Source: a virus
Virus record (IMG/VR): IMGVR_UViG_3300046832_001910
Coordinates: 32,001 to 96,000 of that record
Reading direction: 5' to 3' (one strand)
DNA: 64,000 nt
Both the position numbers and the translations under genes were made by a program. Shown here in pieces: positions 14,230 to 20,110 of this stretch (its first letter is position 1; every line of letters begins with the position of its first letter). The notes under the pieces were generated by a model. That model was not told where the DNA came from and did not search any database. It was given only the letters and a program-made list of their open reading frames with translations.

Positions 14230-14531
14230 ATATAGACATTGAAAAACTTAAAAAGATCGAAGAGGTCTGCGGACAATTTGAAATTGGTCGAATCATGGGT
14301 GGTGGTGATCATAACTACCTTCGCTTTGGTTATTGGAGACCGACTGATTGGACTGCACTCCAAGAGATCTTAGGTCCTTCTATTATCGTAGAAGAAGACT
14401 CCGATTATGATGATGACTGCGGTTGGAAGTATTCATACACTCTCTATGATCGCTTTGAATGGGAAAAGATTCAAAAAGAAAGACAAGAGAGATTAAATGC
14501 ATGGAGACAACCTTCCGTGAAACAATCATAA
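14226..14531 (+). CDS. Hypothetical protein
   Basis: 101-aa ORF, ATGA overlap with the upstream gene. Confidence 0.7.
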   Translation: MNIDIEKLKKIEEVCGQFEIGRIMGGGDHNYLRFGYWRPTDWTALQEILGPSIIVEEDSDYDDDCGWKYSYTLYDRFEWEKIQKERQERLNAWRQPSVKQS

Positions 14532-14547
14532 TACATAGTTATATAAA
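14520..14547 (+). promoter_or_regulatory. AAAC-N18-TATAAA promoter for tmRNA
   Basis: Same class as the other 10 copies. Confidence 0.6.
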
Positions 14548-14555
14548 TAACGAAA

Positions 14556-14567
14556 CGTTCTTTAACA
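14556..14567 (+). promoter_or_regulatory. boxA-like antitermination element
   Basis: cgttctttaaca versus rrn boxA TGCTCTTTAACA; immediately before tmRNA. Confidence 0.65.
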
Positions 14568-14571
14568 TTAT

Positions 14572-14952
14572 GGGGGTGACCTGGTTTTGACGGTTAAGCT
14601 GAAAATAGGTTACTGATGCAAGCAGGGTTAGATGGAAACCCTTAAACACCTATCACACAATAAAAGGCGAAGAGAAATCTTCATTCACCTGGGAAGACGC
14701 AATGTCTTTCATTGGTGCTGATTACGCAGTAGCTGCCTAGTCAGTCCCGCACTCATCGTGGGGTATTAAAAAGAATGAGAACCTTGAGTACTTCTCGCTG
14801 ACTCTCTAAATAAGAGTGGGGAACATTGGTCCAATTAACGATGTTGAAGAACTAATTGGTATTTTGTTTGTTTAGAAAAATAAACTAAGCTTGTGAACGA
14901 AGGATTTAGGTTCCTTAGTCGGACATGGGTTCGAATCCCATCACCTCCACCA
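14572..14952 (+). ncRNA. ssrA: tmRNA (one-piece); tag reading frame 14666-14740 GEEKSSFTWEDAMSFIGADYAVAA*
   Basis: 5' GGGGGTGA...TTTTGAC; 3' T-arm GGGTTCGAATCCC and TCACCTCCACCA; Ala G:U acceptor; tag ending YAVAA-stop. Confidence 0.95.
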
Positions 14953-14956
14953 AAAA

Positions 14957-15014
14957 AGGATGCTTACAGCAAACTAGGACTAGATTTGTAAACTATACTC
15001 CTCAGCATCCTGTA
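14957..15014 (+). ncRNA. Unknown hairpin RNA element, copy 1 (AGGATGC.TACAGCAAACT...AGCATCCTGTA)
   Basis: aggatgc/gcatcct stem; second copy at 15843-15900. Confidence 0.6.
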
Positions 15015-15016
15015 AT

Positions 15017-15089
15017 GCGGAAGTAGCTCAGTTGGTAGAGCACAACCTTGCCAAGGTTGGGGTCGCGAGTTCGAATCTCGTCTTCCGCT
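15017..15089 (+). tRNA. tRNA-Gly(GCC)
   Basis: Cloverleaf, anticodon arm caacc-ttGCCaa-ggttg. Confidence 0.95.
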
Positions 15090-15115
15090 CAAAAAGAAAT
15101 TTTACTCACATAGTG

Positions 15116-15143
15116 AAACAAACATAGTGTGAGTATATATAAA
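15116..15143 (+). promoter_or_regulatory. AAAC-N18-TATAAA promoter driving the leader ORF
   Basis: gaaac-aaacatagtgtgagtata-tataaa, about 20 nt before ATG 15165. Confidence 0.6.
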
Positions 15144-15164
15144 CAGTAAATAAAAACAAATTCA

Positions 15165-15260
15165 ATGCAACTGCACGGATGTACATATTGGATACTTAGT
15201 AATGTGGAGAAGAATTTTCCACAGGCGGATTCAATTACACACATTCCAGGCAGGAGCTAA
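15165..15260 (+). CDS. Putative attenuator leader peptide MQLHGCTYWILSNVEKNFPQADSITHIPGRS (all 20 amino acids)
   Basis: ATG after A-rich 5' UTR; 31 codons; 3' end complementary to the downstream terminator 5' arm. Confidence 0.75.
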   Translation: MQLHGCTYWILSNVEKNFPQADSITHIPGRS

Positions 15261-15286
15261 TGAAATAAACTCATCTAATAATTTAG

Positions 15287-15324
15287 GCCTCCTGGAAAAT
15301 AAAAAATTCCAGGAGGCTTTTTTT
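15287..15324 (+). terminator. Intrinsic terminator / attenuator upstream of the tRNA array
   Basis: gcctcctggaa-N9-ttccaggaggc plus T7. Confidence 0.9.
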
Positions 15325-15333
15325 ATGGGTCTC

Positions 15334-15364
15334 TTTCAGAAAAAGATTGAGTGGTTTATATTTG
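15334..15364 (+). promoter_or_regulatory. Host-type (Bacteroidota TAnnTTTG-like) promoter TTTCA-N17-TTATATTTG
   Basis: Same architecture near 13752, 25476 and 60663. Confidence 0.55.
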
Positions 15365-15386
15365 TTTAGATTAAGAATAACAAATT

Positions 15387-15398
15387 TGTTCTTTGACA
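15387..15398 (+). promoter_or_regulatory. boxA-like antitermination element
   Basis: tgttctttgaca, 16 nt before first tRNA of array. Confidence 0.65.
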
Positions 15399-15414
15399 TA
15401 TTGGTACCGATTTA

Positions 15415-15499
15415 GGAAGATTGGCAGAGTGGTCGATCGCGGCAGTCTTGAAAACTGTTGAACTGCAAGGTTCCGTAGGTTCGAATCCTACATCTTCCG
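15415..15499 (+). tRNA. tRNA-Ser(TGA)
   Basis: Cloverleaf with long variable arm; ctTGAaa loop. Confidence 0.95.
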
Positions 15500-15509
15500 C
15501 AAATCAAAT

Positions 15510-15580
15510 TGCCCTCTCGTCTAATGGCAGGACATGTGGTTTTGGTCCACAGTGTGGAGGTTCGAATCCTTCGGGGGCAA
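15510..15580 (+). tRNA. tRNA-Gln(TTG)
   Basis: tgtgg-ttTTGgt-ccaca. Confidence 0.95.
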
Positions 15581-15582
15581 CT

Positions 15583-15762
15583 AATGAAACCCACAGAAGT
15601 CCGATTAGCGCGGATGAAAGGAACCTTGGCTCTCAAAGGATCGCAACCTTTTAAAGAGAGTTTGAATGTCCCAAGGTACTCTGTTCAGATTCCTGCTCTG
15701 CTGTGCACGGCAACAGGTTATGGGGAACAAACCATAAGTAAAACTCGGAGATAGGTTTCATT
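15583..15762 (+). ncRNA. Unknown about 180-nt structured RNA within tRNA array
   Basis: Closing stem aatgaaacc/ggtttcatt; internal stems accttgg/ccaaggt, aaagg/ccttt, ttatgg/ccataa; long-range tccga/tcgga. Confidence 0.6.
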
Positions 15763-15766
15763 TTAA

Positions 15767-15839
15767 CGGGGAGTAGATCAGTTGGTAGATCGGGTGGTTT
15801 GGGACCATCAGGCCGCAGGTTCGAGTCCTGTCTCCCCGA
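15767..15839 (+). tRNA. tRNA-Pro(TGG)
   Basis: ggtgg-ttTGGga-ccatc. Confidence 0.95.
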
Positions 15840-15842
15840 CTA

Positions 15843-15900
15843 AGGATGCATACAGCAAACTTTACTAAACAGCAAATTTGGAAAAAAGAAGCATCCTGTA
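15843..15900 (+). ncRNA. Unknown hairpin RNA element, copy 2
   Basis: aggatgcatacagcaaact...agcatcctgta. Confidence 0.6.
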
Positions 15901-15904
15901 TTTT

Positions 15905-15977
15905 GCCTCTGTAGCTCAGTTGGTAGAGCTACTGATTTGTAATCAGTGGGTCGCAGGTTCGAATCCTGTCGGAGGCT
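15905..15977 (+). tRNA. tRNA-Thr(TGT)
   Basis: actga-ttTGTaa-tcagt. Confidence 0.95.
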
Positions 15978-15982
15978 CAAAT

Positions 15983-16054
15983 GGTCTGTTCGTCTAACGG
16001 TTAGGACATCACCCTTTCACGGTGGTGATACGGGTTCGATTCCCGTACAGACTA
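15983..16054 (+). tRNA. tRNA-Glu(TTC)
   Basis: tcacc-ctTTCac-ggtgg. Confidence 0.95.
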
Positions 16055-16060
16055 CAACAT

Positions 16061-16135
16061 TGCGGGGTGGACTGGAGATGGTTCCAGCTCAGTCTCATAA
16101 GCTGAATCACATGGGTTCGATTCCCATTCCCGCAA
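16061..16135 (+). tRNA. tRNA-Met(CAT) (initiator/elongator not resolved)
   Basis: tcagt-ctCATaa-gctga; acceptor tgcgggg/tcccgca. Confidence 0.85.
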
Positions 16136-16139
16136 CTAA

Positions 16140-16213
16140 GGCTCGTTAGTAGAGATGGTTACAATGTCGCCCTGTCACGGCGAAGGTCACGGGTTCGAGT
16201 CCCGTACGAGCCG
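16140..16213 (+). tRNA. tRNA-Asp(GTC)
   Basis: tcgcc-ctGTCac-ggcga. Confidence 0.95.
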
Positions 16214-16287
16214 CAAAAAATGCCGAGGTTTAATATTGACCTAAAGTAATGTGTACAGTTACATCGTAGGAAGGCTACCTACATCTT

Positions 16288-16364
16288 GGGGGTATAGCTC
16301 AGTTGGCTAGAGCATCTGCCTTGCACGCAGAGGGTCGTGGGTTCGAGTCCCTCTATCTCCACCA
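16288..16364 (+). tRNA. tRNA-Ala(TGC), CCA encoded
   Basis: tctgc-ctTGCac-gcaga; ends ACCA. Confidence 0.95.
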
Positions 16365-16365
16365 A

Positions 16366-16438
16366 GATCTCGTAGCTCAGTTGGTAGAGCAATACACTTT
16401 TAATGTATGGGCCGCGCGTTCGAGCCGCGCCGGGATCA
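16366..16438 (+). tRNA. tRNA-Lys(TTT)
   Basis: ataca-ctTTTaa-tgtat. Confidence 0.95.
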
Positions 16439-16445
16439 CAAAAAA

Positions 16446-16510
16446 ATCGCTAATGGAAACATTGAAGGTGTACAATGCTAGCAACACCGCAGGTTAAGCG
16501 ATATCCTGCA
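16446..16510 (+). ncRNA. Unknown compact pseudoknotted RNA between tRNA-Lys and tRNA-Leu
   Basis: atcgct/agcgat, cattg/caatg, ggtgt/acacc, gcagg/cctgc with crossing topology. Confidence 0.45.
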
Positions 16511-16514
16511 ATTT

Positions 16515-16595
16515 GCCGAAGTGGTGGAATGGTATACACGCTGGTCTTAGGAACCAGTGCTTCACGGCTTAAGGGTTCGAGTCCCTTCTTCGGTA
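16515..16595 (+). tRNA. tRNA-Leu(TAG)
   Basis: ctggt-ctTAGga-accag, variable arm. Confidence 0.95.
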
Positions 16596-16599
16596 CTAT

Positions 16600-16672
16600 G
16601 CATCCTTAGCTCAGTTGGTAGAGCGCTTGCCTTACATGCAAGATGTCGGAGGTTCAAATCCTTCAGGATGTA
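16600..16672 (+). tRNA. tRNA-Val(TAC)
   Basis: cttgc-ctTACat-gcaag. Confidence 0.95.
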
Positions 16673-16678
16673 CAAAAT

Positions 16679-16761
16679 TGGAAGGTGGGTGAGTGGTTAA
16701 AACCGGCAGACTGTAACTCTGCTCCCTTACGGGTACGGCGGTTCGAATCCGTCCCTTCCAA
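16679..16761 (+). tRNA. tRNA-Tyr(GTA)
   Basis: gcaga-ctGTAac-tctgc, variable arm. Confidence 0.95.
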
Positions 16762-16766
16762 CATTT

Positions 16767-16840
16767 GGACCTTTAGCTCAGTCGGTTAGAGCATCGGACT
16801 CATAATCCGCAGGTCGTAGGTTCGAGCCCTACAAGGTCCA
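16767..16840 (+). tRNA. tRNA with CAT anticodon, probably Ile2 (lysidine) or Met
   Basis: cgga-ctCATaa-tccg; GGACCTT acceptor resembles Ile2. Confidence 0.85.
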
Positions 16841-16845
16841 CATTT

Positions 16846-16918
16846 AGTCGATTAGTTCAATTGGATAGAACACTTGACTACGGATCAAGAGATAAGGGTT
16901 CGAGTCCTTTATTGACTA
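16846..16918 (+). tRNA. tRNA-Arg(ACG)
   Basis: cttga-ctACGga-tcaag. Confidence 0.95.
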
Positions 16919-16923
16919 CTAAA

Positions 16924-16996
16924 GGTGATGTAGCTCAGTTGGTAGAGCAAAGGACTGAAAATCCTTGTGTCGGCGGTTCGATTCCGTCTATCACCA
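16924..16996 (+). tRNA. tRNA-Phe(GAA)
   Basis: aagga-ctGAAaa-tcctt. Confidence 0.95.
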
Positions 16997-17007
16997 CAAA
17001 GTAATAT

Positions 17008-17079
17008 TCCTCGGTAGCTCAGAGGCAGAGCACATGACTGTTAATCATGGGGTCGGGATATCGTAATTCCCCCGGGGAG
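17008..17079 (+). tRNA. tRNA-Asn(GTT), atypical T-loop
   Basis: catga-ctGTTaa-tcatg; T-loop reads ATCGTAA. Confidence 0.85.
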
Positions 17080-17086
17080 CAAATAT

Positions 17087-17160
17087 TGGAATGTAGCTCA
17101 GTTGGTTAGAGCACTTGCCTGATACGCATGTGGCCGGCGGTTCGAGTCCGCCCATTCCAA
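17087..17160 (+). tRNA. tRNA-Ile(GAT)
   Basis: cttgc-ctGATac-gcatg (one stem mismatch). Confidence 0.85.
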
Positions 17161-17165
17161 CATAT

Positions 17166-17239
17166 GGTGGTCGTAGCTCAGTAGGTAGAGCACTGGATTG
17201 TGGTTCCAGTCGTCGCCGGTTCGATCCCGGTCGATCACC
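17166..17239 (+). tRNA. tRNA-His(GTG) with G-1
   Basis: ctgga-ttGTGgt-tccag. Confidence 0.95.
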
Positions 17240-17244
17240 CAAAA

Positions 17245-17315
17245 GGCACCGTGTCCGAGTGGTTAGGCGAAGGTCTGCAAAACCTTTTACACTGGTTCGA
17301 ATCCAGTCAGTGCCT
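17245..17315 (+). tRNA. tRNA-Cys(GCA)
   Basis: aaggt-ctGCAaa-acctt; U73. Confidence 0.95.
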
Positions 17316-17324
17316 CTAACATAT

Positions 17325-17397
17325 ACGTCTGTAGCTCAGTTGGTAGAGCACTGGTCTCCAAAACCAGGTGTCGGTGGTTCGAGCCCATCCAGTCGTG
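17325..17397 (+). tRNA. tRNA-Trp(CCA)
   Basis: ctggt-ctCCAaa-accag. Confidence 0.95.
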
Positions 17398-17413
17398 CTA
17401 ATACATAAACCAA

Positions 17414-17863
17414 ATGAAAGTGTTCAGAAAGACAAATGGGGTCAAGGTAAATGTGATTGAACACACCCTTGAACAGCTAAGGAATTTTCCTTATGCATCG
17501 ATTCACATCGGTACTGATTCTCAAAATCATGGAGATGTAACGGTTTATAGTACTGTCATTGCATATCGCTTTGGAAACACTGGTGTGCACTATATTGTGC
17601 ATAGGCAAAAATTCCCAAAGATTTCTGATATGTGGACTCGTCTTTGGAAAGAAGCAGAAATGAGTATTGAAACTGCTGAATGGCTAACACAACAAATTAA
17701 TGTTAAAATCTCTATTGATATGGACTATAACGGAGATGAAGGTTTCAAATCAAATAAGATCATATCAGCTGCAAAAGGCTGGGCAAATTCATTAGGATAT
17801 CCGGTTAATGTAAAGCCTAATGAACAAATTGCTACAAGGGCAGCAGACTATTGCTGTCGCTAA
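17414..17863 (+). CDS. RNase H-like YkuK/DUF458-family protein
   Basis: IGTDSQ, RLWKEAEMS, IDMDYN, ATRAAD motifs; embedded in the tRNA array. Confidence 0.75.
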   Translation: MKVFRKTNGVKVNVIEHTLEQLRNFPYASIHIGTDSQNHGDVTVYSTVIAYRFGNTGVHYIVHRQKFPKISDMWTRLWKEAEMSIETAEWLTQQINVKISIDMDYNGDEGFKSNKIISAAKGWANSLGYPVNVKPNEQIATRAADYCCR

Positions 17864-17864
17864 C

Positions 17865-17949
17865 GGAAGGTTACCCAAGTGGTGAAGGGGGCAGTTTGCT
17901 AAACTGTTAGGTCGGCAACGGCGCGAGGGTTCGATCCCCTCACCTTCCG
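17865..17949 (+). tRNA. tRNA-Ser(GCT)
   Basis: gcagt-ttGCTaa-actgt, long variable arm. Confidence 0.95.
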
Positions 17950-17999
17950 CTCTTTCAGAATGTAACTTTATGTATTATTATTAAATAAATAGTTTAGGT

Positions 18000-18197
18000 A
18001 TGAAACAGGATTTTATTTGGGTACGTAAGGTTATCCTAAACAATGATAATAGAACAGCTCATTATGACTCTTTATTGAGGTTAATTGAGTTGTTTACATT
18101 AAAGTGGAAACACAATGAAAAGGATCCACGCTTTCATGATGCATATGTTTCATATAAAGCTTTTTTGAAACTTACCCTTAGACAACAATATAATTAA
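18000..18197 (+). CDS. Hypothetical protein
   Basis: 65-aa ORF filling intergenic gap. Confidence 0.6.
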   Translation: MKQDFIWVRKVILNNDNRTAHYDSLLRLIELFTLKWKHNEKDPRFHDAYVSYKAFLKLTLRQQYN

Positions 18198-18232
18198 ACC
18201 AAACAGAGTTTTAGCATATAAAAATAAAAGGT

Positions 18233-20110
18233 ATGGCCGTAAGTGTAGAAAAGAGGTATCAAAAACTTACTGATACTGAGCACGTTCTCCTTCGTCCGGG
18301 TATGTACATTGGTTCAATTAAACCACATACCGAGGAAGTTTTTCTTATTAATGAAAAGAAAGGAAAGTTTGAACCTACAGAGATTACTTATAATCCAGGG
18401 TTTATTAAACTTTTTGATGAGATCGTATCCAATTCAGTTGATGAACATAAAAGAAATCCTAATCTTAACCAGATTAAAGTTACAGTAGATGAAGTAACTG
18501 GTCGTATATCAATCTGGGATAATGGTGGAATACCTGTAGAGATTCATAAAGAGTACGGAGAATGGGTTCCTGAAATGATCTTTAGTAATCTTAAAACAGG
18601 AAGTAACTTTGATGATACCGAAGATCGTACTGTTGTTGGTACCAATGGCGTTGGTAGTACTCTTACCAATATATTTAGTAAAGAATTTAGAATTGAAACA
18701 TGTGATGGCAAAAAATCATTCTTACAGATTTTTTCAAATAACATGTCATCTAGGACAGAGCCGGTAATTAAATCTCATAAGAAAGGCTATACTGAAATTT
18801 CATACATTGCAGATTTTGATAGATTTGGAATGAAGAAGATTGATAAGTCTTCTCTACAAATGATCCAAAGAAGGCTTTATGATATTGCTGCATGTAATAC
18901 TTCACTAAAGATTTATCTTAATGATACCTTAATATCATTTAAGAACTTTAAGGAATACGCTGAACTCTATACTGATAATGTTTTTTATGAGCAGTCTCAA
19001 AATTGGAGAATTGGTATAGGTCATTCTACCTCAGGATTTAAAGCAATATCATTTGTAAATTCAGTAGAGACTAAAGACGGTGGTACACATGTTAATAATG
19101 TAACATTTCAAATCATTCAGTATCTTAGAGAAAAGATTAAGAAAAAGTACCGTGTAGATGTAAAGCCTACTGACTTAAAACAACACATCTTTCTATTCAT
19201 TGACTGTACTGTAATTAATCCGGCTTTCTCATCTCAAACAAAAGAGAAACTCATTACTGAACCAAAGGACTTTGGAAGTATTCATGAACTTTCAGAAAAG
19301 ATACTTAAACAAGTATTTGGTTCAGAAATCATTCAATCGGTTCTTGATTGGATTGAAAGAAAACAAGCAGCCGAAGAAAGAGCAAAACTTAGAAAGTTAA
19401 ATAATAACCTTGATAAGTCAAAGGTAATTAAACTTATTGATGCTAAGAAAACGGGAGATAGGAAAGGATGTACCCTTGCAATCTTTGAAGGTGATTCTGC
19501 ATCATCTGCATTCCGCCGTTACCGTGACCCACAAACACAGGGTGCATTTCCTCTCCGTGGAAAGTTTATTAATGTAAGAGAAATTCCTGACTCAAAGGTT
19601 GTACAAAATAAAGAAGTACAATCTCTTATGGCAGCAATTGGATTAAAGATTGGTCATGAACCAAAGGATCTCCGTTATGGTAAAGTTTTACTTTATACCG
19701 ATGCCGATGTTGATGGTAATTCAATTTCTGCTCTTCTTATAAACTTCTTTGGTAAGTATTGGCCTGAATTATTTGAGGAAGGTAAAATCTTAAAGGTTGA
19801 AACACCTCTTATGGTTGCAAAGAAAGGAAAAGAAACTCTTAGTTTTTATTCTGATGAAGAGTATAAAGAATGGGAACAAAAACAAAAATCATTATCTTCG
19901 TGGAATATTGAATATAAGAAAGGATTGGCTGCATTGGAGGACGAGGAATATCAGGAGATCATTAGAAGCCCTAGATCATACTTTCTTACAAAAGATAATG
20001 GATTTAACAGTACATTAAATATCTGGTTTGCAGGTGACTCTACACCCCGCAAAAAGAAAATTTTAGGAGAATCTGTAGAAATTAAAACAAGCAATAAATC
20101 TCTTTTTTAA
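18233..20110 (+). CDS. Type II topoisomerase ATPase/TOPRIM subunit (gp39+60-like)
   Basis: EHVLLRPGMYIGS, EIVSNSVDE, GTNGVG, EGDSA, PLRGK, TDADVDG, YKKGL. Confidence 0.95.
   Translation: MAVSVEKRYQKLTDTEHVLLRPGMYIGSIKPHTEEVFLINEKKGKFEPTEITYNPGFIKLFDEIVSNSVDEHKRNPNLNQIKVTVDEVTGRISIWDNGGIPVEIHKEYGEWVPEMIFSNLKTGSNFDDTEDRTVVGTNGVGSTLTNIFSKEFRIETCDGKKSFLQIFSNNMSSRTEPVIKSHKKGYTEISYIADFDRFGMKKIDKSSLQMIQRRLYDIAACNTSLKIYLNDTLISFKNFKEYAELYTDNVFYEQSQNWRIGIGHSTSGFKAISFVNSVETKDGGTHVNNVTFQIIQYLREKIKKKYRVDVKPTDLKQHIFLFIDCTVINPAFSSQTKEKLITEPKDFGSIHELSEKILKQVFGSEIIQSVLDWIERKQAAEERAKLRKLNNNLDKSKVIKLIDAKKTGDRKGCTLAIFEGDSASSAFRRYRDPQTQGAFPLRGKFINVREIPDSKVVQNKEVQSLMAAIGLKIGHEPKDLRYGKVLLYTDADVDGNSISALLINFFGKYWPELFEEGKILKVETPLMVAKKGKETLSFYSDEEYKEWEQKQKSLSSWNIEYKKGLAALEDEEYQEIIRSPRSYFLTKDNGFNSTLNIWFAGDSTPRKKKILGESVEIKTSNKSLF

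Follow-up and report, generated by a model that had tools for sequence, protein, structure and literature searches.

The trp, his and thr leaders and the multivalent ilvGMEDA leader of enterobacteria are leader-peptide attenuators of amino-acid operons, and classical attenuators of this kind need codon runs for sensitivity. The whiB7 leader, vmlR and the ermC-type systems are translation-stress attenuators with upstream ORFs (uORFs), and T-box riboswitches act without an ORF, by direct binding of uncharged tRNA. Antitermination in bacterial rRNA (rrn) operons works through boxA with NusB/NusE. Arrays of tRNA genes are common in phages; to our knowledge, their regulation is largely unknown. In the parts of the literature that our search could reach, neither tRNA genes nor phage tRNA arrays were found described as being under the control of a leader peptide.

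The window analyzed here (the whole stretch of 64,000 nt) comes from an IMG/VR virus record of 117.6 kb with T4-like genes, e.g., for a type II topoisomerase subunit. The source is a lake phage, and its host is a member of the Bacteroidota, since the 16-mer before tRNA-Ser is the boxA of Bacteroidota rrn spacers. We consider it probable that the stretch in front of the tRNA array of this phage is a ribosome-mediated transcription attenuator, and that it belongs to a class widespread in Bacteroidota phages. This is based on the sequence features and how well they are conserved, on the alternative pairings, and on the recurrence of layout and leader-array matching in other phages. From positions and energies we infer that the ORF is translated and coupled to transcription, which way the switch turns and what triggers it physiologically.

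By analogy, the locus would work like trp, his and ilv attenuation. It has in common with the trp, his, thr and ilv leaders a short leader ORF, mutually exclusive pairings (1:2, 2:3 and 3:4) that rank alike in stability, an antiterminator positioned under the ribosome that finishes the ORF, and a predicted read-through when decoding is slow. It differs from them in its target, its lack of codon runs and a valency of up to 20. While the enterobacterial leaders control enzymes, tRNA genes are controlled here, so the product sensed would be the product made. The known leaders sense one to three amino acids via codon runs, whereas the present one has no runs and would be 20-valent. Unlike them, it is also phage-borne, precedes an rrn-type boxA and belongs to an SD-less Bacteroidota background.

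The whiB7, vmlR and ermC-type systems likewise use a uORF and a terminator to report general ribosome slowing and not the lack of one amino acid. They answer antibiotics or arrest peptides, however, and control resistance or regulator genes, whereas here the leader mirrors the downstream tRNA set. T-box riboswitches likewise report tRNA status through a choice between terminator and antiterminator, while the choice would be ORF-based here. With rrn antitermination the locus shares its boxA, the 16-mer being the rrn spacer element of Bacteroidota; here this 16-mer stands before phage tRNA arrays and after a leader ORF and terminator.

Layout of the locus and composition of the leader ORF

The features of the locus are collected in Table 1. 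Between the TATATAAA box and the array follow, in this order, an A-rich stretch, the ORF, a 25-nt variable linker, the terminator, ∼60 nt and boxA. The boxA 16-mer proper occupies 15388–15403 and tRNA-Ser starts at 15415. The preliminary description had counted 21 tRNAs for 19 amino acids downstream and tRNA-Gly upstream, and ARAGORN gave the same result; a tmRNA was found upstream too.

Table 1. Features of the leader region and the tRNA array (positions in the window).
Feature	Position	Strand	Basis and remarks
tRNA-Gly(GCC), sole tRNA upstream of the leader	15017..15090	+	ARAGORN, Rfam
Hairpin, loop kept in all variants	15104..15134	+	Fold, alignment of variants
Promoter-like TATATAAA box, 29 nt before the ATG	15136..15143	+	Recurrence before other genes, conserved in alignment; putative promoter function
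Leader ORF, 31 codons + TAA, all 20 amino acids	15165..15260	+	A-rich untranslated leader, no SD
Region 1 (protector): 5' strand, outer stem of the ORF-spanning hairpin	15167..15182	+	MFE fold; 90.5% of cells paired
Apical stem-loop of the ORF hairpin	15203..15223	+	Folds; 98.6% paired, one-sided changes keep pairing
Region 2 (antiterminator strand), within codons 27–31	15244..15257	+	Duplex energy, shuffles
Intrinsic terminator (regions 3 and 4), run of 7 T	15285..15324	+	Folds; 100% paired, one compensatory pair
Candidate second promoter, between terminator and boxA	15335..15364	+	Consensus scan TTCAGA-16-TATATT; conserved blocks
boxA-like element, 11 nt before tRNA-Ser	15388..15404	+	Same 16-mer before tRNAs in viral contigs
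Array: 21 tRNAs, 19 amino acids; freshwater-1-like RNA and one 149-aa ORF inside	15415..17950	+	ARAGORN, ORF list, Rfam

Several other elements were seen around the leader. The tmRNA (14572–14952) has a 24-residue tag and is covered by metatranscriptome contigs, some of them from relatives. A match to the freshwater-1 RNA motif at 15682–15743 (68.6 bits vs. an Rfam gathering score of 72, E 6.8e-15) sits in the gap from tRNA-Gln to tRNA-Pro (15582–15766), and RNA-library contigs from two runs cover 15606–15772. The hairpin between tRNA-Gly and the TATATAAA box has stems that vary among the variants, with pairing retained by eye. The 9-mer ACATATTGG occurs twice, at 15183–15191 within the leader ORF and at 15396–15404 in the tail of the boxA-like element. 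ACATAT was also seen by eye near the beginning of leader ORFs from other families, where it is read in a different frame. A blastn search of GenBank phages with 14500–18300 gave tRNA-sized matches only, with 0 records covering 80% or more.

Two promoters had been proposed, one on each side of the leader. Of the upstream one (15116–15143), the TATATAAA box at 15136–15143 recurs before genes, but the sigma-70 scan gave no match there. The box is found 19–47 nt before the ATGs of other phage genes, 12 times on the + strand vs. 3 times on the − strand, and this strand-specific occurrence is consistent with a phage-specific promoter. The downstream one was recovered by the sigma-70 consensus scan at 15335–15362, with blocks conserved among the variants. 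SD-like sites precede only 2 of the 59 long ORFs of the window, and starts are preceded by A-rich stretches, as is that of the leader; both traits are consistent with a Bacteroidota host.

The distance from the terminator stem to boxA is 70 nt in this phage and includes the promoter-like site. The earlier proposal that the leader gates the array is too strong a claim, as a conserved promoter-like stretch and boxA intervene. With this candidate promoter downstream of the terminator, the array could be transcribed without read-through. An independent input to the array is probable, and the leader would add a conditional one without being the sole gate. One RNA-library (metatranscriptome) contig spans 15166–15410 and thus crosses the terminator; at a depth of 4.5 and with DNA carry-over possible, it is a weak hint of read-through. 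All RNA evidence comes from Logan contigs, for which uncovered parts are uninformative and depth cannot rank expression.

In-silico translation confirmed the 31-codon ORF with its 20 distinct residues, the TAA being followed by an in-frame TGA. The 19 residue types in codons 1–22 were also found, Arg being the one missing, as were all synonymous pairs described before (Gln CAA/CAG, Leu CTG/CTT, Ile ATA/ATT, Ser AGT/TCA/AGC, Gly GGA/GGC). The abundance of G/C-ending codons holds as well (GC3 0.42 vs. 0.22 in the long ORFs of the phage). The codon usage of the leader departs from that of the phage genes, with a CAI-like value of 0.49 vs. 0.71 ± 0.08 (P = 0.0014). Runs of regulatory codons were not found in the leader, where each residue type occurs 1–3 times in the 31 codons. 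The sole Arg codon, AGG, which lies inside the antiterminator, cannot be read by tRNA-Arg(ACG), and the GGA codon cannot be read by tRNA-Gly(GCC).

The chance of finding all 20 residues in 31 codons is P = 3.2e-4 for the base composition and 2.8e-4 for the gene composition, and that of at least 19 residue types in 22 codons is P = 1.7e-5. The leader is the sole all-20 ORF among the 529 ORFs of 20–40 aa in the window, which has 373 ORFs of 20–31 aa. By a rough estimate, an all-20 short ORF is expected in about one window per some tens (a few per hundred). Such an ORF alone therefore proves nothing, and by itself it is not compelling in a scan of very many windows. Among the short ORFs of other viral loci (17,307 + 10,452), no all-20 ORF of up to 36 aa was found outside the family of the window.

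Alternative RNA folds and variants of the leader

The strong terminator of the preliminary description was confirmed. Its stem (15285–15319) has 13 pairs and a loop of 9, the T run covers 15318–15324, and it folds with −21.9 kcal/mol alone; it is absent from a simple terminator scan because the loop limit of that scan is 8. The complementarity between 15244–15254 and 15288–15297 was likewise recovered. Region 2 and the 5' arm of the terminator form 7 + 3 pairs with one bulged C, and the duplex has an energy of −16.9 kcal/mol. A hairpin at 15203–15223, suggested earlier as a pause site, is present, but as the apical part of a 92-nt hairpin spanning the ORF rather than as a stand-alone structure. 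This ORF hairpin runs from the G of the ATG to the last sense codon (−29.7 kcal/mol).

Region 2 has two alternative partners, region 1 or the 5' arm of the terminator. When the transcript ends at region 3, the 2:3 pairing is in the MFE fold for 4/4 variants. The order of stability is as in trp: outer 1:2 < 2:3 (−15.5) < 3:4 (−21.9). The 22-mers that pair equally well with region 3 make up ∼7e-4 of those sampled in the window, which gives a chance of ∼1% for an equally good complement within 130 nt upstream (P = 0.017 vs. shuffles). Counted from where the stop codon ends, region 2 spans −18 to +1, and a ribosome of typical footprint that finishes the ORF would mask it. Across the variants, the structure is 96.7% paired vs. 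31–52% in slid controls.

These values bear on the view that the terminator ends an upstream tmRNA-tRNA-Gly unit, with the ORF and the complementarity as chance features of a conserved 3' trailer. The terminator is indeed located after tRNA-Gly, and all-20 short ORFs are expected a few times per hundred windows, as estimated above. Yet a promoter-like box stands between tRNA-Gly and the ORF, and the 2:3 site is at the ∼1% chance level. The RNA contig begins at 15166 and not at the tRNA, a weak point, and the class-wide evidence given below holds here too. We regard a 3' trailer as extremely unlikely.

Scans of IMG/VR and metagenome contigs gave eight full-length copies of the region from ORF to terminator, representing seven distinct variants in three clades. 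All seven (7/7) have an ORF of 31 codons with an unchanged stop position and the full set of 20 residues. The long hairpin over the ORF is conserved across them, as are the terminator and the alternative pairing. The synonymous sites of the ORF are far more conserved than the linker. Compared with its relative L007, the leader has 15 differences, 5 of them synonymous (hand count), corresponding to a dN/dS of roughly 0.6. As the synonymous sites are conserved as well, selection acts mainly on the RNA. All 20 residues are retained after 15 random-position substitutions in 1.5–2% of cases; for L007 the value becomes 12–19% with the observed positions fixed and 50% when the types of change are kept too. 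That the relatives retain all 20 residues is therefore weak evidence, given how well the nucleotides themselves are conserved.

Because the conservation is mainly one of nucleotides, a translated leader and a structured RNA are inseparable within the clade of the window. An indel in the terminator loop within this clade misaligns the column informative for 2:3 covariation, and 2:3 covariation was observed in other leader families only. A profile of the window family run with nhmmer against the fetched loci gave no match outside the clade. An exact 14-mer scan for relatives was discarded, as among the matches listed most were due to chance.

The pattern of conservation is what one would also see in a stand-alone gene for a small structured RNA, with its own promoter, the 92-nt hairpin and a terminator; the ORF would then be incidental and the array transcribed from the later promoter only. 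Nucleotide-level conservation including synonymous sites, the atypical codon usage of the ORF and the strong conserved fold agree with such a gene, as do the neighborhood rich in RNA genes (tmRNA, freshwater-1-like RNA) and the promoter-like site after the terminator. It would, however, require an incidental all-20 ORF that exactly spans the hairpin, which is very improbable. Moreover, Rfam gave no family match in 15091–15414 at E up to 1, and a T-box was likewise not found there. The unrelated analogues described in the following section always have an ORF, fixed terminator spacing, in-frame indels and a composition matched to the array. Taken together, we find an RNA gene of this type unlikely and keep to the attenuator, whose trp-type elements (leader ORF, protector hairpin, antiterminator strand and terminator) are present, conserved in all variants and recurrent elsewhere.

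Leader loci before tRNA genes in other phages

The boxA 16-mer is present in many viral contigs, often 10–12 nt before a tRNA. Among bacterial genomes it occurs almost exclusively in those of Bacteroidota, in the part of the rrn operons that separates the spacer tRNAs from the 23S gene, ∼140–200 nt before the latter (L345–L464; e.g., L350:3295–3310, L355:2075–2090 and L388:3101–3116). A check of the bacterial 16-mer for rRNA gave rRNA hits at 3/4 loci and none at L347. Checks with 16S primers were without a match because the 16-mer precedes the 23S gene. The phages appear to have borrowed the 16S-23S spacer boxA of their hosts. A terminator upstream of the 16-mer was seen in 2/121 matches in bacterial genomes, and the combination of leader ORF and terminator was not found in them; the single bacterial ORF before a 16-mer and terminator resembles the C-terminus of a protein.

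Distinct viral loci with an intrinsic terminator ≤150 nt before the boxA 16-mer made up a first set (n = 17). A clean ATG ORF of 22–36 codons, ending 24–39 nt before the stem, was present in 15/17; the other two, L238 and L321, were dropped since their ORFs overlap the terminator. With the window, L001 and L007 added, 18/18 chosen loci have an ORF vs. 3.3 expected from shuffles. In a second set, the T run abuts boxA (34 distinct upstream regions from 49 matches in 48 loci). All 34 regions have an ORF of 22–38 codons that ends 22–39 nt before the terminator, compared with 7.3 in shuffles. The tRNAs of these abutting loci would be reachable solely through the terminator, because there is no room for a promoter. 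The leader of the window fits the class layout with its 31 codons, a 26-nt gap to the stem, and boxA and array after the terminator.

The leader ORFs of the class belong to many unrelated sequence families. For 26 distinct leaders, the complement of the terminator arm was better than in shuffles (P < 0.1 in 25, P < 0.05 in 16), and in 25/26 it falls within the final 30 nt of the ORF or directly after the stop. The first set shows the same complementarity at the ORF end, family B being weak. Compensatory changes between the last codons of the ORF and the terminator arm were observed within families. Also within families, indels in the ORF are multiples of 3, while flanking indels are of 1, 2, 4, and 5 nt. 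In one family pN/pS is 0.35 in frame vs. 2.73 and 0.82 in the other frames; the coding signal of family A is not clear (0.67 in frame vs. 0.64 in another frame). ORF spacing, in-frame indels and arm complementarity form what is, at the level of sequence, a signature of ribosome-mediated attenuation.

The preliminary description had pointed to related arrays as the place to look for the same leader type. The short ORF with terminator and the compensatory changes were found there, but the residue diversity is only moderately high (mean z 1.0 and Stouffer 3.35 for 11 hand-picked leaders). Two arrangements differ from the common one. In the family of L300, L324 and L317, a tRNA-like gene comes straight after the terminator, followed by boxA and tRNA-Gln, and the leader ATG has a TAnnTTTG box of the Bacteroidota type ∼60 nt upstream of it. 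L473 carries two leader-terminator-boxA units ∼1.5 kb apart, one per tRNA block.

The ORF could also be a small protein gene with a 31-residue product acting in trans, in which case the terminator would merely end its transcript. The locus has gene-like signals, the ORF is conserved, and N-terminal residues are alike in several leader families. The constraint on the peptide is weak, however, and its C-terminal residues co-vary with the terminator arm in other families. As these residues change together with the arm, the RNA would dictate them. In addition, arrays of class relatives have no room for a promoter of their own. A trans-acting peptide is therefore very unlikely in our opinion.

Leader composition, array content and the proposed switch

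The amino acids of the leaders were compared with those of the tRNAs that follow. The contiguous downstream tRNA block was taken for each leader with a 700-nt gap rule, and the leader was checked for every amino acid that the tRNAs of this block serve. The gap rule left ten distinct leaders with no array (nine with the boxA match used; L333 with none). In 23 representative leaders, which were hand-picked and are not fully independent, 175/185 array amino acids are present vs. 137 expected for random peptides of phage composition. Coverage is full in 19/23 and incomplete in 4/23 (Fisher P ∼9e-7). The enrichment of residues in the set is mixed across loci.

The leader of the window contains 19/19 array amino acids (14.1 expected), and 0/4000 random peptides equal that. 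The match is imperfect at the codon level, as Arg(ACG) of the array is not addressed by the leader. Since other leaders contain the amino acids of their arrays' tRNAs, the all-20 content fits a rule and is no curiosity. The window would thus be the limiting case, in which a leader with all amino acids accompanies a full set of tRNAs. The tRNAs of the phage match the 19 amino acids of codons 1–22 plus Arg, with the one for Gly upstream.

The switch may work as follows. A short transcript would start at a phage promoter, and the 31-codon ORF on it would fold into the long hairpin. If the lead ribosome keeps pace with the polymerase, it would cover codons 27–31, the terminator would form and transcription would end at 15324. 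A ribosome delayed in codons 1 to ∼22 would open the ORF hairpin and leave the antiterminator strand free. This strand could then pair with the emerging 5' arm of the terminator, and the polymerase would pass boxA into the 21 tRNA genes. In the absence of translation, the 1:2 hairpin should favor termination. Because codons 1–22 hold 19 amino acids, a shortage of almost any tRNA would lead to more tRNA synthesis. Restored decoding would shut the array off again, giving a negative feedback on decoding capacity.

It is possible, and we suggest it tentatively, that this amounts to a closed-loop decoding homeostat: a 20-valent leader that polls all tRNAs via single codons and switches on the full replacement set as soon as one of them is limiting, with a composition selected to equal the array, as for the partial arrays of other phages. 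It may be triggered when the phage itself degrades host RNA or when defenses of the host cleave tRNAs.

If the attenuator reading is true, tRNA genes would be under translational feedback, and the logic of amino-acid operons would be widened from one amino acid to twenty. The leader would be a testable sensor of decoding capacity, and the reading would account for leader composition tracking array content across many Bacteroidota phages. It would also be evidence for regulatory coupling of transcription and translation in the SD-less Bacteroidota, and would bear on how phages translate when host tRNAs are depleted or cleaved.
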